From contig JAUCBJ010005129.1 in NCBI GenBank assembly GCA_032718475.1, positions 1 to 52,410 on the forward strand: DNA of 52,410 nt. Reading direction: 5' to 3'. How positions within the stretch are numbered: position 1 is the first letter of the stretch; every line of letters begins with the position of its first letter. The notes beneath the pieces are model-generated. The model was not told the origin of the DNA. It did no database searches and saw nothing but the letters and a program-made list of their open reading frames with translations. Positions 1,339 through 40,661 of the stretch are shown one piece after another. Origin of the DNA: Nemertoderma westbladi (lineage: Eukaryota > Animalia > Xenacoelomorpha). A program made the position numbers and the translations under genes.

Positions 1339-2400
1339 ATGACGGAGTTGATAGAAGATGATCTTGGTATTAGGGAGCGATATACTCTACCTTTACAAGC
1401 ATTTGTGGATAGCTTAATACGCGGTGAAGCCGATCCAACCATTACGGAGGACGATGGTCGTTATATCGAACCGCCGATGTCCCAAGAGCAACTTGCGTGT
1501 GAATTGGACTATCGAAAATTCACCACTCGCTATACGAATCGTAATGGTACGTATATGGACTTCTTAACTACCGGCCATCCTATTGATTTACATGATACGG
1601 ACGATGTAGATACAGAGAGGGAAATGGTTCTCTTTAAATATCATACCCAGCGGAGTCGTAACGATAAACCGAGAATAGATCACGAAAATTCTATTCGTAA
1701 TAGACTGGAAAGAGAAAACGTTGAAGAACCGGATAAACGCATCGACTTCAACGAATACCTAGAATTTTTGAGAGAAACCTATCTCAACATCGCTAGTCAG
1801 CAGAACTTAGAGACTCGATATCCTCAAGGTATACATCACGACCCTGTGGTAGAACTCAAACGGCTCTATTTCACTATGATGTATCTTACCGCCGATCGTC
1901 CACTACCTGTTATCCCGGATAGTTTTGAACAAATGGAAGAATATTGCAAAACTGGAGAACGTTCACCCGCGTTTCCTCTACAGGACGTACGTCTTTGGTA
2001 TTATTGTGACGAATGCCCTAGACCTAACCAACAAACTGAAAGACACAAACATCCGCGGAGACGTTGCGCTAAACACAGTTTTATGCGTTACACTTACGAG
2101 AGTTTCGAGCGAAACCTGTTCGACGTACCACCTACGATCGCTCATCTTAAACGATCACTGAATAAACCCATGATCAGAGTTCCGGAATACTCGGTCAGGC
2201 CTCCTCATTCCCTAGTGAGACCTCAAACTCTTGATCCTAACAGTATCACTGATCCTCCCGAACTATATTCCCTGTTCAAAGACTTAGTGTTACCCGAACA
2301 ATTAATCGGTGGTGCCCCGGTAGTGGGTTCGTTAGACATTCGCCCATCCTACTTAGCCGGATTGGGACGCGGGCAGCTAATATCGCCCTTTGATCCTTAA
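1339..2400 (+). CDS. Accessory ORF of element A, N-terminal part (353 aa, unknown domain with a CxxC..H..C..H cluster)
   Basis: ATG-initiated open frame containing WYYCDECPRPNQQTERHKHPRRRCAKH. A degraded homolog lies in C (~28700-29569, -). Confidence 0.75.
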   Translation: MTELIEDDLGIRERYTLPLQAFVDSLIRGEADPTITEDDGRYIEPPMSQEQLACELDYRKFTTRYTNRNGTYMDFLTTGHPIDLHDTDDVDTEREMVLFKYHTQRSRNDKPRIDHENSIRNRLERENVEEPDKRIDFNEYLEFLRETYLNIASQQNLETRYPQGIHHDPVVELKRLYFTMMYLTADRPLPVIPDSFEQMEEYCKTGERSPAFPLQDVRLWYYCDECPRPNQQTERHKHPRRRCAKHSFMRYTYESFERNLFDVPPTIAHLKRSLNKPMIRVPEYSVRPPHSLVRPQTLDPNSITDPPELYSLFKDLVLPEQLIGGAPVVGSLDIRPSYLAGLGRGQLISPFDP

Positions 2401-5400
2401 TCGTCCAGGATTAAACCCGATGCAACCCGCCACGGAAGTCGAAGAGAGCGTTATAAGAAATGCTTTAGACGCCATTCGACAGAAAATCGGAAAGGGAACA
2501 CAAGATTGTTTAGAGAAACGTAAATTACAACAACAAGTCCAATCGGTGAAGGAGTTAGCCTTGCCACAGTTCGATAGAGAAATCCAAAACCTCGAGGAAG
2601 ACATCGAGCTTGGACGCACGTATTCTCTACAAGAATTTTTAGATGAACGCTTACAGAGACAAGCGGAAGAAAATCTACTCGAGGAGAAACACACGAAACT
2701 GGAAGAGAGAGAAGAAGCCGCATTAGCCCAACCTGAAGCTCAAATGCTCATGACGGACCTCTACTCTAACACCGTTCGTCATCCCTCGATGATTCCACAT
2801 TTCGGAGACAAGCTCTTCGCGACGATACAACCTCAACCGGTTGATATCAGTACAGGATCGCAAAATCTTATCGCTGACGCCCCTATGTTACAGCGTCCGC
2901 CGATCGAGGCCGCTCGTGTTGACGGTATACTCGTTGAACCTCCGGACAATCGAGCGGATCTTGTCCGTCGTATGGTACACGATGTCAACATACGCGCTAG
3001 ACCTTTACAGAACTCGTTTTATGGCATTAAAGACCACCCTTATTACGTTAATCTGACTCAATATTATATGGTAAAACCAGAAGACCCGACACATAATTTA
3101 AAGTTTCTACCACTAATAAATCCTCTAGACATTGTCGAACTCGAACAATTGCAGAAACATCTGGATCAGTTAGTAAAGGTAAACTCATTTAGAAAACCAT
3201 ATAACATTTCTCGAATCGAGAAAGATATAGAACCTCCTTATAATCTCGATGGATTTATTAAAACTCGATTAGTCCATTGGAATCTAGATGTATTATTTGA
3301 AGAAGAGAAAATACAAAGATATGGAAATGTGGAGACGTATACCACTCGGCACATGAAGTATAGTGATCTCCCTGACGCTAACCAATGCGCCACCTTGTGG
3401 CATCCAGTAGGGATGACCCTAGAGAACGCCACCAAGGAGTGGAATGAAACTCTTAATGTTATTGAGATGTATGGAGTTGTCACCTACGATAATGAAGGTA
3501 GCGTTCTGGTCGGAGAACTAGGAACTACGCGCATGATCCACATACGCGGACTAGCTGGTTCTACCCACGTGTTTACTCGAGCGTGTTCCGACGTGATTGA
3601 TTATTCTTTTGAAACTCTCACCGAAACACAAAAGAATCTCCGACATGGACAATTCGAACTCGCACAGCGTTACGTCATTGACACCGAACGCAAACCGGCC
3701 ATGGGCATCGATGGATCGATGTTACCCCAGCCCGTACTCGAGATGTTGTTCAACGAAATAATCCTTAAAATCGGCTCAGCTGTTTATGGAGATCTCCAAA
3801 ACGACTTTCGGAATATGGAGAACATTCCATACCCTTTCGTTGATACTCAGCTGATTGCTCCCTGGGCAGAAGGTCGAGGTTTCTTCCGCACCATGTATGC
3901 TAATACGTCTAGCAACATTACAAAGGTGCAACGAACTTCCATCGGACATCTTGCCTTTCAGGAATACGGATGGAATTTCAAAGTCGGAAATCCCATTAAC
4001 TATCAACAAGTATACGGAGACCATTATTCTCGATTATACTTTGATGGACCATTGACCGCACCTGGCGCCGTGTATAGCTTCATGAGTGTTCCACTCCGTC
4101 CCTCCTTAGCTATATACACGATCTTTGAAAACACCGCACTTGCCGGTTGGCTAGCCGATGTGTGCAGTCGTACCATACGCGCCCATCCATTAATATTTGG
4201 GACCAAACTCGCTAAGCTAGATGAACATAATAAATTCATCCGTTTCGAATGTTTCCGGCGATTTTTAACCCCGTTCCGCAATGTGGATAGCCAATTTAAA
4301 GACCGCGCTTTGACCAAGCTCAGCCTAAGAAACTCAGCTGCAGAGAAGTTGGATAGCGCTGGATTCGCCGTTTTCCAAGAGATTTGTATATCGAACTTGC
4401 ACTCCTCTGTTATACAAAGACCTCGAATCCCCACAGGTTATTCTGTCGTGGAAATTCAGACAATCGGTCCACCTGAAGAGACAGACACGCCCACTTCAGC
4501 TATGCACTTGGAAGACGAACCAATATGTCTAGAATCTGAGGAGATTCAGCCTATCGCGCCCCGGAACAGCGACAACGATTACATCATAGAATGGTATCAA
4601 GGTCCACAGTGTCTCACTGCGTACGATTATCGACATGCCAACTATGTTTCTAGGCAACGTTGTCGGTTATGCGCATCGAGAGACCATGATACGCCCATGG
4701 ACACCAACGTCCGCTGTTCCTATTTCCAAGAACAACCGACTATGGAAATTTATTGCGCATATTGCAGACTCAATAACTTGCATATCTTTGCGGTTTGCCC
4801 TCAATTTATGACTCAATGTCACCATTGTCAACTAAAGGGACATGCCAGTTTCGATTGCCCTTTTAATCACGATTTGGAAAGCGTAGATGAAATGATCACA
4901 CTACGTTACATCAGAGCTTGGGAAGCGAACACTGATTTACATTGTGATTCGCGCCATCGCTATTATCCCGGACGCGCTTACGAAGGAGTTTATGCGTTCC
5001 ATCCTTATCTATTCGCTTCGGTCGAACAGAAATCACGCATATCGAGTTACGAGCTACTGAAGCGCGTCGGAGAATGTATTTCAACCAAATTCGTACGCAA
5101 ATTTCTCAGGAGTGTTAATCCTAGCGACCTTCATTCCTATAACTTAATCAATTATATCCGTCAGGATCCGGACTATGGAGACTTGTTTGTTAACTCACAC
5201 CCCAAGTTACAGGAAGTATATCGACGGCCTTACGAATACCGAGCCCGCGAACGCGAGTTGGAAAGAACCATTAAACCCCGGAGGTTTCTAACTGCCTATG
5301 GTCCACCCACGGCCCTCGTTCAGACCACTCGTAAAGGACCCGTAAGAGCGGCTGTCTTAAAACGAGCTCTCAAAGCCGTTAGACCCCTCTCCCCCGACGT

Positions 5401-5590
5401 TGATGTCAATCAACCCGGTACTTCGACTGGCGGATACACCGACCATAATCCTACACCCTCTGATGCAATCATATTGCACCCTTCACCCAGAAGTTATAGC
5501 CCTCCTTGTAAAGTGGCTCGCCCCAAAGAGAAAAGGACTCTGGCTAGCTTTAAAAAACTGCGTAAACGCCATCCGCGCAAGAAAGACTAA
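2390..5590 (+). CDS. Accessory protein of element A: coiled coil, DEDDy 3'-5' exonuclease-like domain, Zn-finger array, basic NLS-like tail
   Basis: 1066-aa open frame. ExoI-like VVTYDNEG, LPQPVLEMLFNEIILKIGSAVYGDL, FVDTQ, YTIFE. Zn units CRLCASRDH..C, CAYCRLNNLHIFAVCP, CHHCQLKGHASFDC. C-terminus KKLRKRHPRKKD. Confidence 0.8.
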   Translation: MILNRPGLNPMQPATEVEESVIRNALDAIRQKIGKGTQDCLEKRKLQQQVQSVKELALPQFDREIQNLEEDIELGRTYSLQEFLDERLQRQAEENLLEEKHTKLEEREEAALAQPEAQMLMTDLYSNTVRHPSMIPHFGDKLFATIQPQPVDISTGSQNLIADAPMLQRPPIEAARVDGILVEPPDNRADLVRRMVHDVNIRARPLQNSFYGIKDHPYYVNLTQYYMVKPEDPTHNLKFLPLINPLDIVELEQLQKHLDQLVKVNSFRKPYNISRIEKDIEPPYNLDGFIKTRLVHWNLDVLFEEEKIQRYGNVETYTTRHMKYSDLPDANQCATLWHPVGMTLENATKEWNETLNVIEMYGVVTYDNEGSVLVGELGTTRMIHIRGLAGSTHVFTRACSDVIDYSFETLTETQKNLRHGQFELAQRYVIDTERKPAMGIDGSMLPQPVLEMLFNEIILKIGSAVYGDLQNDFRNMENIPYPFVDTQLIAPWAEGRGFFRTMYANTSSNITKVQRTSIGHLAFQEYGWNFKVGNPINYQQVYGDHYSRLYFDGPLTAPGAVYSFMSVPLRPSLAIYTIFENTALAGWLADVCSRTIRAHPLIFGTKLAKLDEHNKFIRFECFRRFLTPFRNVDSQFKDRALTKLSLRNSAAEKLDSAGFAVFQEICISNLHSSVIQRPRIPTGYSVVEIQTIGPPEETDTPTSAMHLEDEPICLESEEIQPIAPRNSDNDYIIEWYQGPQCLTAYDYRHANYVSRQRCRLCASRDHDTPMDTNVRCSYFQEQPTMEIYCAYCRLNNLHIFAVCPQFMTQCHHCQLKGHASFDCPFNHDLESVDEMITLRYIRAWEANTDLHCDSRHRYYPGRAYEGVYAFHPYLFASVEQKSRISSYELLKRVGECISTKFVRKFLRSVNPSDLHSYNLINYIRQDPDYGDLFVNSHPKLQEVYRRPYEYRARERELERTIKPRRFLTAYGPPTALVQTTRKGPVRAAVLKRALKAVRPLSPDVDVNQPGTSTGGYTDHNPTPSDAIILHPSPRSYSPPCKVARPKEKRTLASFKKLRKRHPRKKD

Positions 5591-5660
5591 CTGTTTAGAG
5601 TATTTACATATATTAGAAACTGTGATTTTTGTATATTTATAAACTTGAATCCCATTTTCT

Positions 5661-5668
5661 GGGAGCGG
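5661..5668 (+). promoter_or_regulatory. Polypurine tract of element A
   Basis: gggagcgg lies immediately before the TG LTR start and is identical to the PPT of C (28163-28170, -). Confidence 0.75.
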
Positions 5669-6480
5669 TGTAAAAGCTTTTGCGGATATACTCAGTCCCC
5701 CTCGCCCGCAAGGTACCGTTATAGGTGTTTTAACGGACATAAAAGTCATTCTTCTATATACGTGCTTTGGAGGACATGGTAAGGCAAAAAACCCGCAATG
5801 CACCAAATACCCTTGCACAGCTTAGCCTTGATAATTCAGATTACGACATCTAACAGCTGGTTGCTGACATGGAAACGGCCATTGGACACATGGTTCTTTG
5901 TTTGCTTAACAGCCAATCAGAGCGATTTTTTCTGTGGATGTGGAGCTTTTGGCAGATCATGCTAGGAGTGTTCAGTCTTACTGTTTTTTCTTGATACTGT
6001 TGTGTTGTTTCGATCTAGGCCAGGAACACCGGCTCTAGAGTCAATTCGTTTTTATACTTTAGAAGAAACATTAGTAGGCTTAAATTATAGAGCGTATAAC
6101 TGTTAACTTATCTTATCTCAATTCGGTCTTACATTATCGGTTCAACATACGTTATTATACTGCTGTTTACTGTTGTGTTTTGGTTGAATATTATTTGGAG
6201 AACATCTATAAAGAACCCAAATTTCCCAATTTTCTTGATACACTACAGGTTAGAGAGACGGGTTATATATAGCGATTGCGACTTATATTATTGTGGTTTG
6301 TAGTGAATTTAATGCTATTTGATAAGCACTACATGAGTCCGTTGCTGTTCTCTTTATATATGATAAAATTCATTGACGGTCGGCAAATTAGTGAGCAGTA
6401 TTGTGTGTTACCGGTAGTGTGCCTGATTGTGACTGATAACTAAGCATTTCCTAAAGAATGCGCCTCATACGTGAATCATA
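5669..6480 (+). repeat. 3' LTR of element A, 3'-truncated
   Basis: Starts TGTAAAAGCTTTTG and shares patches with the C LTR (e.g. aagcatttcctaaagaatgcgcc). Stops abruptly at the junction with the B LTR. Confidence 0.75.
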
Positions 6481-7091
6481 AGGGATCCCGACTGGATTTG
6501 TAGACTACGCGTCACCGTGTTTACCTTAGGGATTGTGTTGATGTCTAGGCCGAGGCCGTTGTAGCGAAAATAATAAGAGTTGATGTTGTCTCTTGATATT
6601 TAGATAACAGTATTAGTAACACAGTAAGGATTGCAGATAAGCATTGATACTATGAGATGGATACCGGTAGGTGTGTGTGTTGGTGATGGTGATGGTGTGA
6701 AACATCACCGGTCTGCACTAAACCTGATAACTGGGTAACTGTACCGGTAACTAATATGCATTGATAATATATGTGATCACTCCTACACTGCTGTGGCCTT
6801 TCACCTAGTGGATGCTCTCCCTCGCCCCTATTGGCTGATAATCTACTTCACGCCCCTCGCCCTCCCCTCTCTGGGAGTGCTTCCCCCCCTGTTGGCCCCT
6901 GCTGGTTGTTTCCCCTCCCGAGGTGTTTTGACCTCTAACCTCCCTTTGTGTGGCTTTGGGGTTGTGTTGTCCCCGGTGTTGGTTGTGATACGAGATTGGT
7001 TATTGCCAATCTCGTATCTCCAACACATTGCTGAAAAAGGTGCCACTTCCCATTTTATGAGGGTAATGCAGCGGAACTGAATCTGCTTACA
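6479..7091 (-). repeat. 3' LTR of element B (about 11 terminal bp missing)
   Basis: Direct repeat of 20181-20789 with a few percent differences by eye. Ends ...gcttaca next to the PPT ctccccccc. Confidence 0.9.
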
Positions 7092-7854: not shown

Positions 7855-10291
7855 CTAGTTCGCTCCTCCCGTCTTTGGGAACCATCTCAGTTCCTTCCCT
7901 CTGTTGTTGTCCTGTCTCGGTCGCTTCCTGGTTGTCACCGCTTCCTTGCTCTTGTCCTCCTTAAGGCTCCTCATCCTTGCCGTTACCTCCTTACTGATTC
8001 CCGTGGTCGATTCCTTGGGCGCTGGTGTTATTAGCTCCCGGTATCGCTTCGCAGGTGGCCCCTCCGAATGCCCCTGCTGCTTTCCCCTAGTAGCGTCCCA
8101 CAAGATCACCTTCATGGCCCGCGGCACATGCTCCGCCAGGAAATCTCTGAACTCTCCCCGGTTCTCTGGCGCCCATCTATCTAAATACCTCTGTGTATTG
8201 ATCACTCCACCATACGATGCCGCCGTCGATGCTGCGTCATGACGCCGACGTCGGCCCACTCCTCGAAGATCTTAAACTTCTCCTCGTCGTGCATCCAGTC
8301 GCACTGGCGTCCATAGTGTCTCCGAAAGTTACACTTAGAGCACCGGTTGTGCATCGTGGACACGCCCCCATCCACGGCAGTAGAGGCAACACGTCCCCTT
8401 CTGGAATCAAGCAGCTCTTTTCCTGGTGAGTAAGCCTCCCGCAGTAATTGCAGCCATGTATCAACGCATCCCGCCCCAAGTCGTCCTTTGCCCCAAGCGA
8501 TCTCCTCGGTCTATGGAGCCGTTGGTAAGCAAACTTCTGGACGTTAACGTCTCTGTCCATGTCTATGTCCTCATCTTGCCTCGGCATCGTCTCTCCGAAC
8601 ACTACCTGTGGTGCCATTCCCGGTTGCTCGCCCAACCTGATGGTGCTCCCCGCGAAATCCATCGCCGGCTCCTCATGCACCCAGGCCCGCTTACCGGGTT
8701 TATCCCAGAAGGCCCTCACTCCGCTGGCCGTCACCACTCTCCCGCCAACCCAGTCCGTGTCTGAGTGGCCGATCCTTCGATGGGCGGCATCTCCCCTAAC
8801 TCGTCGTCATCCTCATCCCCCGCTGGGAGTGGATCCAAACCCGGTATCTCGGCAGACCCACTGTGTCCCTTCCCGCCTTGGCTCTCGCCCGTAACTTTCC
8901 ATCCTTCCAGTTCCCTTGGTCTTTTCTTCGCGAAATCTCCCTCGGCGCCTGCTGGCATGGGCATCGCCTGCAATCCCGATGTCGCCTGTTTCGGCGATCC
9001 TTCCGTCCATCCCAACTCCCGCCCCAGAGACTCGCCCGAGCTCCCTGATCCCCACTGTAACTCGTCCAAGGCCTGGGTCTCGAACCCGTAGCCTCTCCTC
9101 TAGCTTCTGCCTCTCTTTAGTCTGCCTCCCTCCTTTCTTGTCTGACGAATTCTTCCAATCGCTTCTCATCTAGTCTATCCGCCTCCAGCTTCTCCCACCT
9201 CTGATATGGTGTATCCACCCCCCTGTCTACTAGATATCGGCAGTTATAGTATACCGACTCGCCCTTCCGCCCCGGGTGGTCTGCCAGACCCTCGAAGGCC
9301 ACTTTTAAGGCTCTTCTGCAGTTCAGGGGTGATCCCGACAGCAGAAACGCCATTGGCTCTCTTCCGATAACCACAGCCATGAATAGGTTTAGTAAACCTA
9401 TCATTATCCAATCCTCCTGCAGGATATATCGCTTCTGATATATCTTTATCACTCCTCTCCGGAATTGATACACCTCCTGTTTCCCTGGCCTCGCTCCCCA
9501 CTTCAGCGAGTTTGCCAAATCCGCTCCATACTCCTCCCTGAATTTACCCCAGTCCATCAGCTTGTGGCAGACGAGCCCCATCAGCTGGCCCATCGCCACT
9601 GCTCCGCAATGTCCTGTGTTCTCTACTAGTTCAAACCCGGCTGGCCCTGTCATAGCCATGTAGACCGTTTGCATGTCCAGAAGGTTGGGGGTCTCCGGTC
9701 CGACGATCCTCTCCGCATCGTCGCGGATCGCCGATCCCACCTTTATTGTCGACTTCTCCCTTACTAGGTTCTGCACCGCCCTTGGCAACCGGTTCAACTT
9801 CGGCCCGCTCTTCTTCCCATACGTTCCCAGATCGAACAGGAATATGTCCCCATTTTGCGCAGCCAAATGTAGAAGTATGGTTCTGGCCGACCCCGCCGAC
9901 CCTCTTCTCGAACCCTCGTCGTCTTCCACGGTCCCTTCGTCGTCTAGGACCATGTATCCTCCCCTGCTGACGGACTCTACGAACCTCTTCCAGTCCTTTC
10001 TCGGTGGTTCCCTCGGATACTTCGGTATCCTGAACTTCGCCTCATCTCCCTTCACTACGTAGTGGAAATGCTCGAGGATCGCGTTGTCTAGCTATGGTGT
10101 CCCGTAGGTCCCGACCAGCCTCCTCTCGTGCACCTCCCTGAAATGGTCCTGCAGCGCTCGCGCCTTGTGACCTTTCTCTAACCGCTCGTAGTATCCCCTC
10201 GTCTTCTCCTCCGGATGCCTCTGGGTGAAATCTACTAGTATCTCCTTTCCACCTATTCCGCCTTTCTCATTCTGACCAGTCTCTCCGCCAT
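7855..10291 (-). pseudogene. Accessory gene of element B: DEDDy exonuclease, acidic linker, Zn-finger array, basic tail; frameshifted
   Basis: ORF 9117-10055 has YMVLDDEG, ILLHLAAQNGDIFLFDL, LPRAVQNLVREKSTIKVGSAIRDDAERI, LLDMQ and YILQED. Downstream fragments give CNYCGRLTHQEKSC and CSKCNFRRHYGRQC. Colinear with the more intact D copy; the start (ATG at 10291) is tentative. Confidence 0.82.
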
Positions 10292-15169: not shown

Positions 15170-15177
15170 GTTCGTAC

Positions 15178-26962: not shown

Positions 26963-28162
26963 TGTTCGCGCTTTCAGACCTTTGGCAGTTTAACCCGCCA
27001 GATTAAGATGTCTTCTAGATATTAAATCGCCTTTTAGCCTATGACAAGTATTTGATTCACTACACTAGTCGAAACCAATCTGTGCGCGACCATTCACCCG
27101 CTGGATATTCCCGGGAGATTGGGTTCGACGGTTTAATTTTATTGCTATGTAAGCCTAATGTATTATTCGACTGACAGTATTATATAATCTCTGACAATAT
27201 TATTCACCTTCGGGAATATTAACAGTTCCTTTAGGACGTGGCGCTTTATTTATATAAACAGATCACTCACAACGATATGGCTTAATTATAATTCACATAT
27301 ATGGCGCATTCTTTAGGAAATGCTTCTTTAACAGACTCACTCATATACAATGCTGCACAATACTGCACACTAATCTGCCAATCTTCACTGATTTTAGTCA
27401 CATATAAAAGGAACACAGACTGACTCATGTAGGGTCTATCAAATAACATTAGATTCACTTCAAACCACTTTAACATAAGTCACAATCGTTATTGGTAACC
27501 TTTCTCTCTTACCTTCGGTATATCAAGAATATTGGGTGTCGGGGTTATTTCTCGTTATTCCAATATAATAATTCATCAACAAATATAATGAATAACCGAC
27601 AACAAATAGCAGTATACAGTATTGATTGAGCAGGTAATTTTTAGCAGTTTCAGCAGTTATTAAAAGCCGTGTGTCAGCAGTGATTACGAAATTGCAGTGA
27701 TTCCATGAGTTAAAGGATATATGTCCTTATAATTAAACCTACTAGTGTTGAGCTAAAAAGCAGAAAGCACAAAACACTACAAAGCCGTTCTTTCGTGGCT
27801 TTGAAAAACTCGTGACTACTGCTCTATACGAGGATACCAACTACCCTTATTCCACGAAGCTCCCGTTCAACACAGAGAAAGAGCAGTGAGATAGGAAAAT
27901 TTCAGTTCAGTAGCTCTGTGATAGGTCAAAATCAAGGCTAACTCAAATTCTATTGGGAGATACAAAAACAAGGCTATGACGCAACCTTTCTAGGCTGGTT
28001 GGCCGATTAAACAGAGCCCAGATACCTGCGTACAGCAAATCAGCCAATAAGCTGGTAGCTTGCACTATTTTAACTATAGATCCCCTTTAGAGTATTCTAG
28101 CGACCGGGGGGGGAACTGGCCAACAAGGCAAACGAATCAGTTATCCCACAAAAGCTTTTACA
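26963..28162 (-). repeat. 3' LTR of element C (1200 bp)
   Basis: Direct repeat of 41607-42819 with TG..CA termini. The PPT complement ccgctccc follows it. Confidence 0.95.
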
Positions 28163-28240
28163 CCGCTCCCAGAAAATGGGATTTAAGTCTATCAAATATA
28201 CAAAATCACAGTTTCTAAAATATAAAAATACTCTAAACAG

Positions 28241-29569
28241 TTAGTCTTTCTTGCGCGGACGGCGTTTACGCAGTTTTTTAAAGCTAGCAAGAGTCATTTT
28301 CTCTTTGGGGGAAGCCACTTTACTAGGAGGGCCATAACTCCTGGGTGAAGGGTGCAATATGATTGCATTAGAAGGTTTGGGTTTACGGTCAGTGTCTCGT
28401 CCATTTCGATATGCTTCTCCTCGAGCTGATTTTCCTCCGCTTGTCATGGGATACGTTCGTCCAAAACTCTCGCAGAGAATAGGGTTTTCTAAGCTTGATA
28501 TCTTCTTTGAGATTCGAGGTTTCCCAATCGAACTGAGATAAGGCCAATTTGTTTATCGATTGGACTTACTGTTATAACTTACGTTTATCTGAACAAACGC
28601 AGGTTTCCTTTTTGATCTTTATAGAATAGCGTTTAACTCGTTTCGTACAACGCTCTCCTTCACTTTGATGAAGGGTTGTATCGCGTTAAACGGGACGACC
28701 ATACGGTTGGATAGTGATATTAGGTGTCTGCGTCATAATCCGGCTAGGTAAGATGGGCGGCTAGCTAGAAATCACTGTCGGAGTGTTACCGATTAATTGT
28801 TAGGGTAGCACTAGATCTTGAACAGTGAATACTGTCCGCGAGGATCCGCGACACCACCAGGATCGCAGGTCTGAGGTCCAACTAAGGAATGAGGAGGTTT
28901 GACCGAGTATTCCGGGACTCTGATCGTAGGTTTACTCTAGGATCGTTAGAGCCGAGTGAGCATAGGTGATACGTCAAACAAGTTTCGCTCGAAACTCCAG
29001 TAAATATAACGAACACAACTGTGTTTAACACAACGTTTCCGTGGATGTTTATGTCTTTCCGTTTATTGGCTGGGTCTAGGGCATTTACCGTAATAATACC
29101 AAAGACGCACGTCTGGTAGGGGAAACGCGGATGATATTTATTTGTTGTTACAATGCTTCTATCAAGAATTCCAAATATATGTTGGAGTTACCGCGTTTAT
29201 TTGTTTCTTTAATGTCTTTTCTTTCGAGCCGATTTCGAATAGAATTTTCGCATTCGAATTTCAGTTTATGGTTCCGACTCCGCTGGGCAGGATATATAGT
29301 TGACATAGTCCGTATTGTGTAAATCGATAGGATGATCAGTAGTTAAGAAGCCCATATACGTACCATTAAGCTGCGTATATCGAGCAGCGAATTTTCTATA
29401 GTCCAACTCGCGCGAGCTGCACTTGGGACATTGTCGGTTCGATATAACGACCATCGTCCTCCGCAGCAGTTGGACTAACGTCGCCGCGTATTAAGCTATC
29501 AACAAACGCTTGTAAAAGTAGAGTATATCGCTCCCCGATACCAAGACCATCTTCTATCAACTCCGTCAT
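28241..29569 (-). pseudogene. Internally deleted, degraded accessory gene of element C
   Basis: Homologous to A 1339-~2708 joined to A ~5437-5590, so the exonuclease and Zn array are absent. Retains MTELIE.. and ..LASFKKLRKRRPRKKD. Confidence 0.85.
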
Positions 29570-31221
29570 ATCTGCTATATATGAGTTTATCCATATTATA
29601 AGGAGTTTATATTTAGGCTAGCGAGCGTCGCTGCCTACTCCAATTAACCCCCGGACAGTACGAGATCCTCAGCGCCGATGTGTCGTCGCCTCTGTACTTT
29701 CGCCAACGACGTAGCCGCACAACGACAACGACAACCGGCACAAGTCACTCGACTGTCCGTCCCAAAGGCTTAGATGTACTTCAGGTTTTCCTTGGAGAGT
29801 TAGGTTACTTTTACGATTGCGACTAGCTACTGTAAACACACCTTAGCAGTAACATTCACCTATAAACTCACAAATACCACACACACAACTTGTCACAAAT
29901 TACACACATTCGGGCCATTTGTCCGTTAGTCAATGCCTTCCAGAATGTCACTGTATTATTATGTATCCTTGGATACTAGTAGTGCGCTATTTATTCCCTA
30001 TGCTATTCAATGGGACAAGCTTTCTATTGTTCTTTTAACTCAATTCTAATTCTAGCGTGGTTGTTGCTATGGTGACATTATGCAAAGCTAGCGGTAGAAT
30101 TAGGGTAATTCCAATGCATACAGATCTGGGATGTTATTTAATAGTATTCTTTAATAGTCAATGTTCTGTTTTATACATGACTTTATGAATTTTATCGGCT
30201 ATTGACTATGTTTGGGAGACTTTCACACACTCATACGCATGATAAGATAAATCTCCGCTCCCTTGATCTATTAATTAATGGAATTTTGGGAATGTTATAA
30301 ATCGCGTAAAATGGCAATTTATTAAATTCATTAAAAGACATGAATTTAAATTTATTCCCTGAAATTTTATTATTTGATAATTAAATGGGCATATTTTGAT
30401 TCTAGAACATGTCTAGGGACACAAGATCCTTAATTCTAAGAAAATTGTCTCTTTAAGAATATCGGTAAATGCTACGATATCTTAATTGACTAGAATTGTT
30501 GAAGGATCTGAATTTTACAGATTTTGACTTATTTGATTTGTAAATATTAACTAATTAATATTTGAGATGGGCACCGATTTATTCCAGAACTTGTCTGGGG
30601 ACGTTAACCACTGATTCTATAATTTGTCTTTCAAGTATATCGGTGGGTGCCACGATATCTTAATCGACTAGAATTACAGATGGTCAAAGGGTTTAACAGA
30701 TTTATTTTGCGTTATACGCTACTGTTAAAGGGACATCACGCTACTATATGTATTATTTAATATACGGTATGAGAGCAATATCGCACGAAGCAATGTCAGT
30801 GTGAAGAGGCAAGTCGTTTCCAAGGTCTACCCAGAGCTTGGTTTAGCCGAGACACGAGGATCTGAACTTTGCATTCCTAATACTCTGCCTACCAATAATA
30901 CTTAAATATAGTAGTGGCTTTATTGTACTTTAATAAGTACGGACATTTCATCTTACTGTAGTTATGTATTTATAATATAATACGGACAGTAAGGAAAGAG
31001 AAAAAATAATTATTTCTTCGCCGTCTCACTAAATATAATATAAGTAATTACGTACGTAATAAACACGAATATATTGCACTATTCTACAAAATAATCGCTA
31101 AATAATATTCTACTAAATTAAATAAAACGATTATAATAAAATTACATAGTAATACATACATAAATATAAAAATAATAATATAATATAAAATAATCGAGTC
31201 ACACGCCCACTCCGAACGATA

Positions 31222-34200
31222 TTAAGTTGGGGAGTCCCTAGATGTCGGTTGGATTAGGGAAGTGGTCGTGGGAAGAGTTTCTTGCCTTCCATAGTTTCCG
31301 GAGAGCTCTCTGTCTCTTTCCAGTAAACATAAACGTCCCACTGGGCGATTGAGCTGTTGAGTCTCAAAGACTATCCCTGGTTTCTTAAAGTTCCGCCGCA
31401 TGACGACGAGCTCTACTGATCGCACCAAACCATCGCTCGAGATATAAGTCTCGATGATACGTCCTGTTTGCCATCGCTTACATGGGAGATCGGGGTCCAC
31501 AATAAGCACCATGTCTCCAGCGCTGACGTTTTCTTGCTGCGCAAACCACTTAGTTCGAAGTTGTAGAGTGGGCAGGTAATGTTTCTCGAAATGGTCAGCG
31601 AAACGACGGGATAGCAACTGCATAAGTTGCCAGGTTCGACGGCAGTACTCGTCTCCGTCTGTGATCTCCGATCGTGGGAGCATGGCTACGGGTTTCTTCA
31701 GTAGAAAGTGCGCGGGTGTTAGCGCTTCCAGGGAATCAGGATTTGAAGAGACTGGCATAAGCGTTCTTTCGTTGAGATAGGCGGCGATTTCCTCCATTAA
31801 CGTCCGCAATAGTTCGTCGGTGAGATAAGCGCGACAAGGCACAATAAAGTGGAACGCAGTCTTCACGCTCCTAATCAATCTCTCCCAACTTCCTCCCCAC
31901 CAAGGGGCGTCGGCGGCGTTGAAGGTCCAGCTAGACGCTGTTATCCTTAGCTGGTCGTCCACCTGTCTTTTATTCCAGTCCTTTACGTAAGCTTGAATTT
32001 CGTTGTTGGCGCCAATGAAGTTTGTTCCCTTATCCGATCTCATCGTGTTACTGGTTCCGAAGCGAGCGATCTGTCGTCGTAAACTCAACACGAAGCTGTT
32101 GGTGGATAGATCGTTTACCATATCGAGATGAATGGCTCTACAAGTCATACAAACGAAGATGACACACCATCTCTTGACTATAGTCCGGGCACGATATACT
32201 TCGATAGGGCCAAATAAATCCACACCGGTATTAGTAAAGGGTGGTTCATAGAAGCTTACTCTTTCCCTAGGTAATTCTGCCTCTCGCTGGGTTAAAGGCC
32301 TACTGAATGCTTTCCTACAGGGTATGCAGTTCCTAAGAACTTGGTTCAGAGCCCTACGGGGTTTATAAAAATAGTAGCGAGTTCGAATTTCGCTCAGAAC
32401 TCGCTCTCTACCAGCATGATACAGTTTGCTATGAACATCTACAATCATCTTGATTTGTATGTCAAGATTTCTAATGAGGATGGGAAACTTAGTGTCAAAG
32501 GATAACGGGGCGTTGGTGAGCCGACCTCCAACACGTATTAACCCATCTATCATGGTACTAGAGAAGCGATCCCTTAAGCGCATCTGCGGATTTCTTAACA
32601 ACAGGAAATACTTATCGGGATCCTCATAGCATTGTAGGAGTCTCAGCATCTGTTTGTTGGTTTCATCATGCTCCTGGTAACTGATCTTCTCCTTTAGAAA
32701 CCTGTTGGATACCTTGTATTGGGGAAGATCTTTAACAACATGGACTCGTGCAGATGTTGATGGAGCATCATCACTATTGGTCTTCGTTCCGGAGTAACGA
32801 TGATGAAAACATCGTTTCAAATAGGTAACAGCTTTACAGAGCCGATTCCAGGAACTGTAGTGACGTATCGCTCTCGGCAAGAGAGGTGAGAGTCCTTGCG
32901 AGATATCTGGTATTCCAGATTTCCAATCCTTGTCACGGATTTCTAAGACTTCTTTCGTCATGGCGGTGGGTTTCTGATCCAAAGCATCATCTCCGGAAGT
33001 AAATAATACAGATAGATCAACCGCAGGTTTAAACAACTTCGATTTACTCGCTCGAGTTTTGGGTTTAACTTTCTCCGCTCCCTTGGCCTGTCTGATCTCT
33101 GCTGTTGTGAGATGGGGAGGCCATTCTTCTTCTTCCCTGTAGAGAAAGTCGGGTCCTCCTAACCATTCGGGAGTATTTACCAATTCCTTTGGAGTCGCTC
33201 CTCGGGACGCGATGTCTGCTGGATTAATCGTTCCGGGGCAATGTCTCCATTGGTCCATCGTCGTGCGACTAAGTATGATGGCTACCCTGTTGGTAACGAA
33301 GACGCTGAACTGACAGACTTCATTGGTTATATACTCTAACACGAGTAAAGCGTCGGTCCAATAGACAGTCTTCTCTAATGGATAGTCAATCTGTTCGGTT
33401 ACATTCCGGCCGATGGCTGTAGCGTATAGAGCCGCCTTTAACTCCGCTCGAGGAACTTTCAACTTGTTGTTGATTAATGCCTTAGAAGTAACCAAGGCGA
33501 CTTTGATTCCATCCGGAGTTTCCACTCTTAGGTAGGCTACTATACCGATTCCCATATCGCTGGCGTCTCCAAACACATGGAGTTGATAGGAATACGTAGG
33601 GAGAACATGACCAAAATATGAACGGGAAATTATAAAATCCTCGATGGCTGGCAGAGAATCTTCCCATTTCATCCACTTCTTCAATAATTCTCCCTTAAGT
33701 GGATCGTCCCATGAGTGGTTTTCAAGCCACATTTGTTGTACCAAACTACGAGCAATCAATATAACTGGGCTAATAAATCCCAATGGATCTAAATAAGTGC
33801 TCAGTATACTTAAGCAAATCCGTTTGGTTCGAACTGGATTATCTCGCTGTTTTAGCTGGAAAAACAGGATATCTCGCTCTGTGTCCCATTTCAAGCAGAG
33901 TGTCTTGGTCTCTGGCAGATCATCTTTGATCAAATCGAGATCTTTCGCTCCTCGATCTTCCGCAGGGATCGACTCCAGAAACTCACGGGAGTTGCTGGTG
34001 AATTTGGTTAATCGAAATCCACCTCCTTTTAAGCACTCTACCGTTCCCTTAGCGACCTCAATGGCTTCCTCAACTGATGGGAGGGACTTCAGATTGTCAT
34101 CCATGTATATGTCTCTCTTGATGTTGTCGATCACTTCCTTAGAGAATGCCTCTCGGTTGTCCTCTGCAGTAGTACGCACTACCGAACAGGCGTTGGAAGG

Positions 34201-37200
34201 GCTTGAGATTATCCCAAAGGCCTGGATGGTCATCCAGTACTCCACCGGTTTCTGGTTGAGATCTCCTTCGGGCCACCACAGAAATCGTAGACTATCTCGA
34301 TCCCTATCTAACACCTTGACTTGTAAGAACATGCCTTCTATATCGGAGGCGAAAGCAATCGAATATTGTCACAATCTTAAAAGAATTCCCAACAAAGATT
34401 GAAGCAAGTTGGGTCCGGGTAGCAATTCAGAGTTAAGGGATTGACCCATGTAAAGAGCGGAGCCATCAAACACTACTCTCACTTCATGTGGCTTACCGGG
34501 TTTAGGAACGTAATGGTGGATTAAGTAATACGTTCTTTCAGTCACAGGTGTTTCTTCCGGTACTCTCTCCGCGTATCCCTTACTAATAAATTTTTCCAGC
34601 TGTGTTTGATACATTGCTTTAGCTGAAGAATTAGCTGTAAGGCGTCGATGGAGTTGCGCGATTCTTTTTTCCGCCAGGGGTCTGTTATTGATGAACTTCG
34701 GTTCTCTCTTGCGAAAAGGTAAACCGACTTCGTACCTTCCTTGATCTTTGAGGAAACGTGTAGTTGTCTCTTGGATCTGCTTGGCCCTTTCCTCTTCCAC
34801 CGACAAGGCTTTATCGTAGGAATTGGGCTCTACCGCCTCTTGCGTAAAGAATCGTACAGCATGTTCATCTCGAGTCTTGGCATTGCAACGCTCAATGACG
34901 TCATTTAACTCGTCGTTATAAGCTTCTCGTTCAGGTGGATAGAGAAGTTGACATAAGTTCACTTGGTTTTGCCAAGCCTCGTTTTCCTTAAGGAGATCGA
35001 TGGTATTCTCCTCATCAAAAAGCTGGTGAACGTCGTCATTATCTGAGGAGTATGGAATTCCCTCAGTTGAGTTGTCTCCCTCACCGGTATCATCTTCCCA
35101 TTCACTCACCTGGCATACGCTCTCTGGCGGTAGTCTTTCTCTGAGTGTTCTACGGGAAGGGCCAGTAAAGTACCAACCTACTCTAGTTCTTACCGCATAG
35201 GTCTGTAGGGGCTGCGGTTGAGCAGGCCGTTTCTCTAACGTCTCCAGCGCCTCATGCGCGTTTTGGCCGATGAGTATTTGCACTCCAGGATAATCAGTCT
35301 GGAATCGAGGTATGTTAAGATGTTGGATGCTCTCATCCTCGTCCCAATTATAAAGGTCTGCTTGAGTAGTAGCGAAGTTCTTTATAGCCACCATTTTCAC
35401 TGACCTTATGCTGTGTTCTCCTAGTTCGTCCTGGGGGGTGGACAACGCTCCTACATAATAATCAGCTGTTATTGTAGATTTCCAAACTTGCATAATGCCT
35501 GACATGTTGAGCTTAGTTTGGAACTTGGGTTGTCCAGCAAATATATCTTCGGCTAGCTCTTTGTCGATGAATGTTCCTGTACTACCGGAGTCAAGGAGGG
35601 CGTTCACTACATAACTCCTCTCAGGTCCGTGAACCCTTACTTGCACCACAGGAAACTCTCGGATCCCTACATTGGAAGATGGCTCTTTCCAAGGTGGTTG
35701 TCGCTCAGAAGTAGTTAAAGTAAAGTCGTTGTCTGTATCTTTTTCATATGTGAGTGCTCGATACACTGCGGTATTTATCATGTAACAGGATTCGTTTTCA
35801 TCGGAGAACTCGTCTGTATAGAATCCTTCCATCTCAGATTGATCAGTGTCGTTCACATCACTGAATTGGACATGTAGCTCGGAATCACTTACCTGATTCG
35901 GACTATTTCGATCGAATTCAGCGTGCAACAAGATATGATGTTTCGCACCACACTTTGCACACCTTATGTCAGAGAAACAGGTTCGCCGTTGGTGTCCTTG
36001 TCTGAGGCAATTATAACATAACCGCTTATCCCACATGACTTCGCGTCTCTCCGTTAATGATTTCTTTAGAAATTCATCACACCTATTCAAATGGTGGGTC
36101 CCGTCACACAGCGCACATTTCGGTTTGATGTTACTTACCTTATTCTGAGTCACATTGTGTACACTTGCTCTTTCTTCGGGCTTTCTCACCTGAATTCTCT
36201 TGGGAGACGTGGGAGGAGTTTTTCTTATCGGTTCTCTCCTGTCATTTGCTCGAGACTTGAATTTACTTACCTGATCTTTAGGCATTTTATTGACATAATA
36301 AGATCTCTCAGTGTCTTTCCCGCTATCTTCTCCTTGAGAAGTCTGGCTTTCGCCGTCGTCTGTATAACACACTGGTGTTACCTTTCTCCTAGAGACGGGT
36401 TTTTCACTTACCTTGTTTTCCGGTGTCTTCTCTCGGGACTGCTTGAGGAGTTGCAATTTCACTTCTCCATCCAAGAATGACATGAGATCAGCCATGGTAG
36501 GGTCTCGTCGTTGTTGTTCCATCATATATAGTACTTTCTTATCCCAGCGTGTGCCTACCCCACCTTTCGGTAAAGTAGAAGCCACAGCTCCAATGACCAT
36601 AGAACTTTGGTATTCATGAGACTTACCTAACCAATCTAATTGTCTACAGATCTCTTGAATCTCATCGGAAAACTCTATTATCCCACTGCTGATGAACTTT
36701 CTGGGCGCTACTAATTTTGCATATAAATACTTAGCGATATTATTCCTATTACCATACCTGATGTTTAGTGTGTCCCAAACTTGTCTTAATCCGTCTGGAT
36801 GTCCAATAAACTTTAACGCCATTAACTTGGGAGATCCTTCCAAGCAGTCGATGAGGTATCTAAGTTTTTCTCCATTAGATAGTACAGAGTTCTGTATGTT
36901 ATCTTTGTAATATTCATTAAAAGGTAACCATTTCATCTCATCTCCATTGAACTTGACGATCTCTCCCACCTTCACCGCTTGCCGGGCTTCGGTTCTAGCC
37001 ATTTGACGCGTAAAACTTTCTTGGGCCATCGTGTTATTTAATATCGAGTTATCGGTATATAAATTTCTCGGATTATGATCAGTTCTATATGGAATATCAT
37101 TATCAACAGGTCTATAATTACCCTTAATAGGGTTCACTATAGGAGTTTCTACTTCGCTAGCAGTATATATGCGTGTAGGCTCCACACCTTGCGCATGAGA

Positions 37201-39354
37201 TACTTCAGACCTAACAGGTTGACACATTGTTACAGAGGGTGGCGGTATACCCTTTTGAGTATTTACTAATTTATCGCGTTCTAGCGCGATACTTTGCTGC
37301 ACTTCTTGCAACTCTAGCCTACTTTCCCTTACTGTGCCCTTGAATTGCTGGACAGTCTCCTGCATCTGCCCGAGCAGGATATCCATCCCCCGCCGTCTCT
37401 CGTCCACCCATTCGACCGCCGAAGCGGGAGTTGCCAACGTTGTAGCGGGCGGACGAGGGACAACAGGCGACAAATTATGAATATTTCGCTCGGAGTCCAG
37501 GACCTGAACTGTCCCCTGGGCAGTTCTATGGGGCACAGGTAGCTTAGTGCTATGCAGAGGGAATTTAGAGGTAGTTTCAGGGAGCACAGGTGTGTCTATC
37601 ACCGAAGGGGTGATTTCAAGAACAGGCCTAATTATTTCAGGCTCATCTACTATAGTAGGGAGTCTTTCTATTTTAATTATTTGGTCTGTGGGCTCTGTAC
37701 TACCTAAGTTGGTGTTATTTAGTTGCCTTCTAACAGCTGGAGGCAAATCAGGCAATTTCTGACGGTGGAATGTTCTTTTACGTCTACTTAGACGAGATCT
37801 ATTTCCCTTGCCTTCAGTATCGGTGGTATCGCCTTCCTCAGATGATGTATAACCCTGTCTTTTGGGAGTAGATCGATTCATCATCTGCATATTACTAGCT
37901 GTTAACTGTTTATTTATGCAGTCTTGATTCTCCTGAATGTTTTCCAATTCTAATTGGGTGGTTTCTTCAGTCGCTCTCCGTTAGGCTTCTGCCACTGCCT
38001 CTGCTGTTGCCAGTGCCGCTTTTCTTTCTGCTTCGGCCTCTGCCTTTGCTGCAGCTACTGCCGCTTTTGCCTCTGCCGCTGCCACTGCCGCTGCCGCTTT
38101 TGTTTCTGCCGCTGCCACTGCCGCTGCCGCTTTTGTTTCTGCTTCTGCAGCTGCCACTGCTGCTGCTACTGCCGCTGCCTTTCTGTCTTCTATACGTTTT
38201 TTCTCTACTTGTTCTTCCTGGACTCGTGTGATGCGGAGTTGTTCATCAAATTTAGCCTGATTCGCAGCCATCATTTCCACATCGATGGCATCCAACACAA
38301 GCTTGGTTCCTTCACTATTAGGGCTAAGTCCCTCTAACCTTCTCCTCAACTCGTCATCACCTAAAAAACGTTGATAGTCTGACAGATAAATGTCAATGGC
38401 ATCCCTCTTATGCGGTTTCTCTGCCGTCGCTTCACTTTCCACTTGGGAAAAAGTAGCGTCTGTTGATTCTCCATGGGTTGATCGCTCCTCCAGCTGAGCT
38501 TTCCACTGAGCTGTTCCTTGAACCTGGAGACTCACCCGTTGAAACCAAGTCTTTACGGCAACTTGCAACGACGTGTCTTGTCTTTGTTTAGAAGCCTCCT
38601 CAAAGGCTGATAAGATTAGCCTGATTCGTAGAATTCTTTCTCTAACTTGATAAAGCAGCAATCCCTGCTCTTGAGGTCCTTGAGGTTGTTGAAACAGTTG
38701 TTCTTTTAATCGCTCTATAGAGCTGAAGAATCCCTGTGCGTATCCGGCTGCGGACCTCTTCCACACAGCTGGATCAATGGTTTCCTTGGCTACTACCATC
38801 TGGTGTATGTCTTCCCAGGCAGCTTCTGATAAATCAAACGGGAGTCCGGGTCCGGGGAAGTTCCATTGCGACTCGACAATAGACTTCAGTTCTTCACTCG
38901 TGTATCCCGCATAACTATCTCTAGTTGACCGTTGACTTCTCGCCCAATCGATCTGGTGTTCTTCCACCGCGATCAATAACCTAGTGAGTACGGCTGCAGG
39001 AAGGATGAGAAGGGGATCCGTATAAACCGCATCCGTCATCTCTGCTCCGCGCTCGGGTGTCAGCTCTACAGTATCCTCACTACTGGAGCTGCTGGGCCGC
39101 TGAGGAATAAGTTCTTGACTAGCGGGTTGTTGCTGTTCCGCTGCTACTTGGTCCCGCTTGACCTGAGCTCGGGTGCCTATGATAGACCTACGATGTTGGA
39201 CTAGCCTAGGTTCTGTTATTACTACTGGAGGGATGACCTTCCTCACAGTGGGAGGTGAACTGAACTTACGACCAGACGGTTGTACGTCTCTATCTGAGTC
39301 GCAGATAGTTACATCTAATAAACTGTCTGACAGGTTCTGCTTAGTATCAGACAT
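31222..39354 (-). CDS. gag-pol: BEL/Pao gag-pol polyprotein of C (~2710 codons, two in-frame stops)
   Basis: Three ORFs share one frame and are separated only by TAA (37981-37983) and TGA (34369-34371). Gag knuckles CALC..HC, CYNC..GH..C, CAKC..HH; protease LLDSGS; RT IYMDD; RNase H HVFGDAS/YWTD/NPAD; integrase H..H..CIPC, GVDLFGP, SDKGTNF, WERL. Confidence 0.95.
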
Positions 39355-40661
39355 ATTTGTGAGTACAGTTGAATGCCTACTGCTATATTACAGTCTAAGC
39401 AAGTCTAGTAATTCAGTATTAACTGCTAGCCTAGTAATTAATTACCGATACTGCTACTCAGTGTAGCGTGATATATATAATATATTAAATACCGGTATGC
39501 TTATAGTATATATAAGTATTATTACAGACTAGGTTTATCACAGAATACCGGTATAATTTTAGCACAAATATATATAAATATATAATAGGCCTATCGGGAA
39601 TACCGGTATACAGCTTACAGTTTGTAGTATATATAATTCTGGACTAGAATTAATTACAAGCACCGGTATAATTTCAGCCTAAATTTATAGAAATAAAGAT
39701 AATAGACCTATCGTAAATACCGGTATATCAATTATTTTAAATAATTGAATTTCTGTATTTTAGGGTTACTTGATTACTTTACTTACTTTATTACCGTTAT
39801 TTGAGCAGTAGTCCAACTGATATGGAGACCTAATGGTTGTCTGGTAGGCCTACTATTTATAAATCGTTAGATTTGATTTATAATATATATATACCCGTTT
39901 TAATGGGTTTTGTCAAATGTTTGAAATAAATGTTATTATTTCTGGGGTAATCACTACACAAAGCGGTGCGCTTTCAGTGAAGTGTTACTTATAGGACACT
40001 AAAACAAATAATTCTAATTTACCTAAGTTACTTAATACTACAAATTACGTACAATTCGGGTTGAGATTACAATCTCTAAATAAACACAAAAATTTACAAA
40101 AAACACAAAATACGAATTTTTAGGGTAATTTTACAAGAAGTCTACAAACCAGCCTAACAAAGGGTTAGAAATCTGGTTATTACAACGGACAGGGTACTAC
40201 GGTATTTGAAAATAATAAGTAGTAGTAAATACACTGCGTTGTCCAGATAGGAAAATACCACCGCCTGACGACCTATAGCCGTATCGCTATAGGTTCTACG
40301 TTATGTATCACGGAGTGTTCCTACCTAGAAGTTAATAGAGCTAATCGAACGTGCCTATTAACCACTTTACAACACAAATATAATGCCTACACTAATTACT
40401 CTCGGAAAGCACTGTACACTAAACCCTAAATTAGGTACGAGTACTTGTACAACAGATAATCAGTAGTTAAATATACTTGAACAGCTAAAAGAACCACGGC
40501 ATCTGCTGGAGTGACCGATGCACAAAATCACCAGTCTTTACCTACGCCAAGCAGCTCGTGTAGTACCGAGGTTAATTTAACTATAGCGGTATGTATAACA
40601 AACACAATTACTGTAGGAACAAACTTGGGGAATGAATGTTGCGAATAATCACATAAACTCT

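Follow-up and report, generated by a model that had tools for sequence, protein, structure and literature searches.

A conserved three-finger Cys/His domain in the exonuclease-type third ORF of BEL/Pao retrotransposons

Introduction

A 52,410-nt stretch of Nemertoderma westbladi DNA (contig JAUCBJ010005129.1, hereafter the window) carries near its start an ORF with three closely spaced Cys/His motifs, and a similar module near its far end. Is this module a conserved domain, to what kind of protein and element does it belong, and what would it do there? An earlier note had described it as an unrecognised triple zinc-finger module with a downstream signature, and had proposed an RNA-binding or targeting role for a nuclease, loosely like the knuckle arrays of Air1/2.

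Exonuclease genes in LTR retrotransposons have been described before. According to excerpts of a report on bdelloid rotifers, the LTR retrotransposons Juno and Vesta and the Terminons carry a DEDDy-exonuclease ORF3 whose function is a prediction; in those excerpts, neither activity nor selection could be shown for it (PMC5408684). Two reviews repeat the rotifer observation in the portions available (PMC5718144; PMC6338049).

Results

Four BEL/Pao elements in the window

The window contains four BEL/Pao LTR retrotransposon copies (A, B, C and D) in repeat-rich DNA (Table 1). The gag-pol of B and C includes the Pao peptidase (PF05380), DUF1759 and DUF5641, the domains that place both elements in BEL/Pao. 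The pol of A lies outside the window, and A was assigned to BEL/Pao because its DNA is 75–90% identical to that of C. The DNA of D is 90.7% identical to that of B. Element C is flanked by 5-bp direct repeats that match at four of five positions. In A, the 3' LTR starts 79 bases after the stop codon of the third ORF and is immediately preceded by a purine tract (5660–5668). A clean insertion of B into the LTR of A was considered and dropped, as no continuation of that LTR is found beyond B. A fibrinogen-domain fragment is also present in the window and, together with the element types, points to eukaryotic and probably animal DNA.

Table 1. Features of the four elements and their third ORFs (positions in the window)
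Feature	Position	Strand	Remarks
Element A	3' part only	+	Sister of C; third ORF 2381..5590
Third ORF of A	2381..5590	+	1069 aa stop to stop; first ATG is residue 14
Exonuclease domain of A, DEDDy 3'-5' type	3398..4360 (approximate limits)	+	From alignment with B and relatives
Finger 1 of A	4661..4717	+	C-x2-C-x4-H-x9-C; H-to-C loop varies across the family
Finger 2 of A	4754..4798	+	C-x-Y-C-x5-H-x4-C
Finger 3 of A	4817..4858	+	C-x2-C-x3-G-H-x4-C; most knuckle-like finger
Predicted helical half of the A domain	4859..5116	+	Family signature, degenerate in A
3' LTR of A	5669..6481	+	Truncated at 6481, abutting the 3' LTR of B
Element B	about 6480–20790	-	LTRs 95.8% identical; sister of D
Zinc module of B (putative)	8220..8452	-	Third copy, more broken than D; small deletions
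Exonuclease domain of B	9117..10091	-	DEDE form; downstream of B gag-pol
gag-pol of B	11740–16185		BEL/Pao
Element C	26963..42819	-	Complete; sister of A; LTRs 98.8% identical
Element D	3' part only, at the end of the window	-	Sister of B
Zinc module of D (putative)	50927..51271	-	Stop in finger 2; frameshift near 50925
Third ORF of D, portion within the window	51161..52408	-	Exonuclease end, linker, fingers 1–2

The module in A and its copies in D, B and C

The third ORF of A consists of about 330 N-terminal residues with no assignment, an exonuclease domain, a linker, the putative zinc module and a basic tail, in this order. In a Pfam search the ORF matched no family at E up to 1. The catalytic columns of its exonuclease domain are D370, E372, D471, Y579 and E583 (the DEDE form). 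This domain is divergent: a profile of 35 hits (see below) matches it at E 4.7e-19, but a profile that used independently fetched loci alone (the loci-only profile) gives it no more than 5.5 bits. The linker between the last catalytic motif and finger 1 measures 181 aa in A and 79–473 aa in 48 proteins.

The A peptides quoted in the earlier note were found where it had placed them in this plus-strand ORF. The twelve Cys/His ligands fall within 4661–4858 and make up three fingers (C761, C764, H769, C779; C792, C795, H801, C806; C813, C816, H821, C826). The module had been given as 4655..5010; its place was right, but the domain continues past 5010 to about 5116. Finger 2 of most relatives has the form C-x-Y-x2-C (81 of 86 parsed). 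The exact spacing CPx5CxxCx3GHx4C, which had been put forward as the shared pattern of A and D, is found in only 16 of 89 non-redundant modules, whereas the general form C-x6-C-x2-C-x3-G-H is present in 88 of the 89. A is an outlying member of its family (36.6 bits, residues 751–912, loci-only profile). The downstream signature, (F/W)-E-x2-A-x2-G-x2-T-x2-R...W-G-F...Y, is real in the family and in D (31.9 bits; 0 of 1000 shuffles) but eroded in A, whose signature alone scores -1.0 bits on the family signature profile, a value reached by 545 of 1000 shuffles. The downstream parts of A and D compared alone are likewise not significant (4175 of 5000 shuffles reach the score).

The peptides quoted for D were located at 51271–50993 on the minus strand, except that a Cys supplied there in brackets is not encoded: its codon is a stop. 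Finger 2 of D also lacks its His, and with this loss, the stop in finger 2 and the nearby frameshift, D is a broken copy. The alignment of the A and D modules scores 65. None of 5000 shuffles reached this score, and with Cys/His fixed 19 of 5000 did; the likeness exceeds chance. In B, the third-ORF stretch sits between pol and the 3' LTR. Element C has lost both the exonuclease and the zinc module: an internal deletion, at about 28395, removed the stretch that corresponds to A residues about 109 to 1020. Since C has nearly identical LTRs and yet no module, the module is not needed in cis.

A family of C-terminal domains in BEL/Pao third ORFs

The profile search proposed for the module was run with A, D and B against 1.84 billion representative proteins (E up to 0.001) and matched 35 distant proteins, of which the ten looked up are unnamed. 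Scored with the loci-only profile, every one of the 35 has a module of at least 25 bits. The exonuclease is found at 15 bits or more in 31 of them (one, P0022, is probably spurious), and the four without it at 15 bits are 124–446 aa long. A degenerate DNA pattern for fingers 2–3 matched at least 120 stretches in metagenome contigs; the module profile scores on 118 of the 120 matches listed, giving at least 118 loci. A few related assemblies may account for many of these loci, so that they are not independent samples. Viral contigs gave no pattern match and no relative, and word-based protein searches found nothing. Prokaryote genomes gave 12 pattern matches: six have no module score and are chance matches, and the other six are genuine modules, found on short contigs that belong to two MAG records and in one case accompanied by a BEL pol (L128). 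The latter six look like eukaryotic contamination.

Of 128 modules, 89 passed a filter that dropped those shorter than 110 aa and those sharing 70% identity or more with a module already retained. The conservation claimed from two copies is borne out in these 89 members, which are less than 70% identical and have near-invariant ligands. The domain reads P-x(n)-C-x2-C-G-x(2-3)-H-x(3-13)-C for finger 1, followed by a variable spacer, C-x-Y-x(0/2)-C-x(4-6)-H-x4-C-P-x-L-H-x2-C-x2-C-x2-R-G-H-x(3-6)-C for fingers 2–3, and then (F/W)-E-x2-A-x2-G-x2-T-x2-R...W-G-F...Y-x2-L. In 54 locus rows, nine columns of fingers 2–3 were fixed by the DNA search pattern and the other columns provide an independent check. 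The finger 1 ligands are kept in 51 (C), 49 (C), 46 (H) and 53 (C) of these rows; the signature is kept in 54 (aromatic), 44 (E), 47 (A), 54 (G), 53 (T) and 45 (R), and at its end in 36 (W), 49 (G) and 47 (Y). An Arg is near-invariant both in R-G-H and in the signature. Some variants have His in place of the last ligand of finger 3 or of a Cys in finger 2. One protein (P0006) has the whole fingers-plus-signature module twice, which indicates that fingers and signature form one domain. The module is a C-terminal domain of about 150 aa in the third ORF of BEL/Pao retrotransposons.

The structure prediction proposed in the earlier note was also carried out. An AlphaFold2 model of the module from 36 rows has pLDDT 76 and pTM 0.70, with well-predicted fingers and helices (fingers and signature mostly 78–94). 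In the model, the three Cys/His fingers are predicted to pack with the helical region into a compact domain. We infer that the fingers bind zinc. Between A-family copies from public runs, the 39 in-frame differences with the best support (among 40 of 597 rows) comprise 27 synonymous and 12 non-synonymous ones; within the module, the same rows give six synonymous and three non-synonymous differences.

Genomic context and co-descent with pol

Eighty loci were obtained with flanking DNA, 78 of them with the module and 32 with at least 5 kb upstream. In 30 of these 32, a same-strand BEL pol is found upstream (the others are L012 and L022), and in none is one found on the opposite strand; the exonuclease is likewise present in 30 of 32. 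All six pol ORFs scanned have the Pao peptidase (PF05380) and DUF5641 (PF18701), and three of the six have DUF1759. Seventeen other ORFs scanned, mostly third ORFs, had no Pfam match at E 0.001. The first ATG of the third ORF is a median of 487 bases downstream of pol (23 loci), and in one locus (L023) paired direct repeats of 0.8 kb flank pol and module. The third ORF sits inside the LTRs, after pol and before the 3' LTR and purine tract. Only 3 of 80 third ORFs reach a 19-residue hydropathy mean of 2.0 (the peak in A is 1.18), so the third ORF is not envelope-like.

For the tree comparison, 34 of 38 integrase-bearing rows with a module of at least 100 aa were used, A being given the integrase of C and D that of B. 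Module and integrase distances of the 34 pairs correlate with a Mantel value of 0.82, and the maximum of 2000 permutations was 0.42. The integrase tree contains 11 of 11 supported module splits, with no supported conflict, and median integrase identity among the compared rows is 38%. The third gene and its module co-descend with the integrase and have been long inherited with pol.

The exonuclease domain

Used against solved structures, the full-length family profile matched EXD2 (E 2.7e-13), Egalitarian (1.5e-7) and WRN (8.9e-5) through its N-terminal domain; a second profile search matched EXD2 at E 4.5e-16. By sequence, this domain is a DEDDy exonuclease type like EXD2 and Egalitarian, with putative 3'-5' nuclease activity. 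These PF01612 domains are its closest solved relatives, and none of them has this zinc module. A single-sequence PDB search with the B exonuclease gave no match, and its single-sequence fold (pLDDT 38) was too poor for use. The ORF3s scanned showed neither a LOTUS-like nor a helicase domain. The earlier placement of the module on a nuclease-type protein was correct, the exonuclease domain lying N-terminal to it.

Fifty aligned exonuclease domains comprise 29 DEDD, 3 DEDE (A, B and P0003), 14 degenerate and 4 incomplete forms. In one clade, the D-x-E motif is lost in 14 of 14 members, while the neighbouring clade keeps DEDD in 13 of 14. The module is intact in both, and it is no less conserved in the dead-nuclease clade: relative to integrase identity, the values are 0.51 vs 0.58 in the dead clade and 0.33 vs 0.47 in the active-looking clade. 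Two loci (L047 and L059) have no detectable exonuclease. The description of the module as a targeting module for the nuclease therefore holds in part. It is fused to a nuclease-type domain, but targeting is not the whole story because the dead-nuclease clade and the two loci without a detectable nuclease keep it.

Comparison with known families and folds

The module was said to be unrecognised, and a full-length Pfam match would have spoken against this; none was found. The best Pfam score, for finger 3 of A, was 15.9 bits (E 0.015) against a cut-off of 20.8 (PF00098 and its clan). At E up to 0.1, each Pfam family was matched by two of 46 members at most, with a best E of 0.0036. None of the knuckle families compared (PF00098, PF14392 and PF13917) passes the Pfam cut-off. 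The module-only profile had no match at E up to 5 among 177,635 PDB sequences, and Foldseek with the module model returned no row at E up to 0.001. The best structural alignment of the model has Z 3.0 and rmsd 5.3 over 100 aligned residues. The lack of a fold match does not prove a new fold. Among Atlas look-alikes of the module alone, the best (0.86) gave no usable lead. The Nanos CCHC family (PF05741) matched 1 of 46 members (E 0.0039) and appeared in one weak Foldseek row (E 1.1), and 24 parsed finger 1 rows of 89 have the Nanos-like H-x10-C spacing; homology of the module to Nanos is unsupported.

Air1/Air2, Lin28 and the retroviral and BEL Gag knuckles share the CCHC ligand pattern, and finger 3 resembles a knuckle. 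Unlike those knuckles, fingers 1 and 2 of the module have non-standard spacing, and a conserved helical extension follows. The likeness to Air1/2 turned out to be weak: Air2 was matched at E 0.11–0.12, and the module-only profile, searched at E up to 5, did not match it. Air1/2 have five knuckles and a conserved linker motif that binds Trf4; only three fingers are present here.

Discussion

What would the domain do? Two precedents bear on this. In TbRND, the RNase D of Trypanosoma brucei (PDB 7C45), according to the parts of the report available, deletion of the CCHC fingers nearly abolishes RNA binding and cleavage (PMC7797062). The exonuclease domain of Egalitarian, in excerpts of another report, binds RNA with its catalytic residues dispensable (PMC13186709). 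Taken together, they would suit a protein whose action on RNA differs between lineages, trimming it in some and only holding it in others. The reading that we prefer, and consider evenly poised between right and wrong on the sequences at hand, is that the module is an RNA-binding domain that would hold the attached exonuclease on that RNA. Where a lineage has kept D-E-D-D/E, the protein would act as a trimmer of RNA 3' ends, and its fingers would contribute affinity as they do in TbRND. In the dead-nuclease lineage it would serve as an RNA-binding adaptor, as the exonuclease domain of Egalitarian does. The fingers of the family are mildly basic (median net charge +4); counted against RNA binding are the net charge of -1 in A and the neutral helical half. 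With the full-length profile, RNA-binding knuckles were matched weakly (TbRND E 1.6e-3, Lin28 2.9e-3, Air2 0.11).

Like the module-bearing proteins, TbRND has a DEDD-type exonuclease followed by C-terminal CCHC fingers (PMC7797062, available parts). The same parts describe four similar fingers in an extended array after a 28-aa linker, in a cellular mitochondrial enzyme (PMC7797062). In contrast, three unequal fingers and a helical signature region follow a long linker (79–473 aa) here, and the protein belongs to a mobile element. This difference in linker, and that between a compact predicted domain and extended fingers, count against the RNA reading. Among Atlas look-alikes of a full-length relative, a euglenozoan cluster that combines an exonuclease with CCHC scores best (0.89), which is a lead only. 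As a functional analogue, the trypanosome RNase D is better than Air1/2.

Candidate target RNAs would be host small RNAs or the transcript of the element itself. The purpose that we tentatively prefer, though it is doubtful, is protection against small-RNA silencing by the host: the protein would trim RNA or sequester it, and so shield the element. Not far behind comes a part in handling the transcript of the element itself, or in localising it. Stated in full, that preferred purpose would make this a counter-silencing protein of an old BEL/Pao branch, in which a new three-zinc RNA-recognition fold steers a captured exonuclease onto host small RNAs and one lineage has switched the nuclease off. 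This fuller version is unlikely.

The main rival to RNA binding is protein docking: the module would recruit a host silencing or transport factor or the element's Gag, and any RNA contact would be made by the nuclease fold. On the neutral helical half, aromatic and small residues (C-x-Y, W-G-F, Y) show strong conservation, the predicted fold is compact, and the module is kept, and no less conserved against integrase, where the nuclease is dead. On the other hand, CCHC fingers on a DEDDy domain bind RNA in one solved case (PMC7797062, available parts), the near-invariant Arg residues of R-G-H and the signature speak against docking, and no partner is identified. We regard docking as unlikely, if the best of the rivals.

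It is improbable that the module arose from an ancient duplicate of the triple knuckle of BEL Gag nucleocapsid and still works like a nucleocapsid, either as an RNA chaperone or in packaging the nuclease into particles. Like the module, BEL Gag has three fingers, of which the second and third lie close together, the two profiles align collinearly, and finger 3 ends in His in some members, as in Gag. An hhalign comparison with 13 BEL Gag knuckle regions gave a probability of 20% and E 0.0011, but its score of 24.9 was reached by 4 of 60 permutations that kept the Cys/His columns. At E below 1e-3, the module profile matched none of the 13 Gag regions and the Gag profile matched 1 of 89 modules, and the helical half has no counterpart in gag-pol. 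The permutation and cross-profile results indicate that the module is not a recognisable Gag duplicate. Its claimed difference from the elements' own Gag knuckles stands, since the likeness does not go beyond the Cys/His pattern.

A protein that acts on DNA is quite improbable. Here the module would bind cDNA ends or chromatin, and the exonuclease would trim the ends of the reverse transcript or help integration. The nearest solved nuclease domains are those of EXD2 and WRN, and the co-descent with integrase is tight. EXD2 also acts on DNA, which counts against the RNA reading. So do WRN-type nucleases, according to excerpts of the rotifer report (PMC5408684). Against a role on DNA, no chromatin-reader or DNA-binding fold was matched in the fold searches, and the dead-nuclease clade persists. 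Other BEL elements transpose with gag-pol alone. Finally, the modest likeness of A and D alone and the non-significant downstream part of A might suggest a coincidence of Cys/His spacing, or a piece of host sequence that is carried along passively. This is very improbable in view of 89 divergent modules with near-invariant ligands, congruent trees and the synonymous excess.

The third ORFs described here resemble the rotifer ORF3s, as excerpted, in being a non-envelope third ORF after pol of the DEDDy 3'-5' exonuclease type (PMC5408684). The rotifer elements belong to the Juno, Vesta, TelKA and Mag lineages and are Gypsy-type, whereas the elements here are BEL/Pao (PMC5408684, in part). The excerpts describe a recent, patchy acquisition and a DEED motif (PMC5408684); in BEL/Pao, the gene tracks integrases about 38% identical and occurs in DEDD, DEDE and dead forms. 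Where the rotifer proteins have, in the portion available, only a Cys-His-Cys motif in two ORFs (PMC5408684), a separate three-finger domain is found here, a comparison made by description only. In the literature searched, which lay outside Repbase, subscription journals and supplements, no description of a BEL/Pao exonuclease ORF3 or of the zinc domain was found, and PMC6431247 has no whole-word match for the subject terms. This is the exonuclease-ORF3 theme in a different retrotransposon superfamily with a zinc domain of its own; it is real and conserved, and apparently has not been described before.

Since the rotifer report (PMC5408684, in part), it has been an open question why exonuclease genes occur in some LTR retrotransposons. 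The BEL/Pao family offers a cleaner test of it, with many intact ORFs and a resolved tree on which active-looking and dead-looking versions occur naturally. The analysis defines a putative zinc-binding domain that is absent from Pfam and unmatched among solved structures, small, well predicted and expressible alone. In these BEL/Pao elements, the space after pol is taken by a gene that is not an envelope and has long been inherited. If the counter-silencing reading is true, the transposon would encode, in that gene, a suppressor of the small-RNA defence of animals.

Variant third genes at related loci

The conserved C-terminal module of the third ORF (three Cys/His fingers and a predicted helical half carrying a signature) is found in several other arrangements among the fetched contig loci. 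At L022, LTR-like repeats spaced 5 kb apart flank the module and the exonuclease, and pol is absent; this locus is possibly a non-autonomous element that has retained the third gene. The BEL third ORFs of L047 and L059 carry the module, in which a long insert separates finger 1 from finger 2, and no exonuclease was detectable in either ORF. A divergent module subfamily (L008, L010, L016, L044, L077, and L079) has one finger 2 Cys replaced by His and the last finger 3 ligand changed to His. The downstream signature also differs in this subfamily, and L008 terminates directly after finger 3. The third ORFs at L005, L015, L037, L043, and L051 are 1277 to 1592 aa in length, with long stretches lacking any Pfam match.

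Real modules were also found on short contigs from two bacterial MAG records (L123, L124, L127, L128, L130, and L132), one of the six being accompanied by BEL pol. These modules likely reflect eukaryotic contamination of both bins.

Element A and other features of the window

Upstream of the third ORF of element A, a 3' part of a BEL/Pao copy, is a 358-aa ORF with a Cys/His cluster near residue 230. It had no match in Pfam, and none of the fetched loci contained a relative; a broken homolog is present in element C. The N-terminal ~330 residues of A's third ORF are also unmatched. The 3' LTRs of A and B are both clipped and meet tail-to-tail at window 6480-6481. No continuation of A's LTR was found past B, and the meeting point resembles a junction left by deletion or recombination. 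The long ORFs read in the 19-bp tandem array are spurious and result from the repeat itself.

Coordinates of repeats, ORFs, and fragments (window positions unless a locus is named)
Feature	Position	Strand	Remark
358-aa ORF upstream of A's third ORF	1324-2400	+	
Tandem repeats, 41-bp and shorter units	10791-11473		fill B spacer, pol to exonuclease ORF
Inverted repeat, 1.1 kb	17540-18665		near-perfect; within B's gag region
Inverted recurrence of D's AT-rich repeat	20962-22214		adjoins B
Fibrinogen C-terminal domain fragment	22313-22963	+	
LINE-type reverse transcriptase fragment	24045-25094	+	
Broken homolog of the 358-aa ORF	about 28715-29578	-	in element C
Tandem array, 19-bp unit	45154-46760		about 80 near-identical copies
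AT-rich repeat	49112-50567		interrupts element D; internal units ~165 bp
L022 LTR-like repeats	about 5187-5895 and 10483-10931		module-oriented coordinates
BEL third ORF with module	L047:3341-6529	+	
BEL third ORF with module	L059:6880-9648	+
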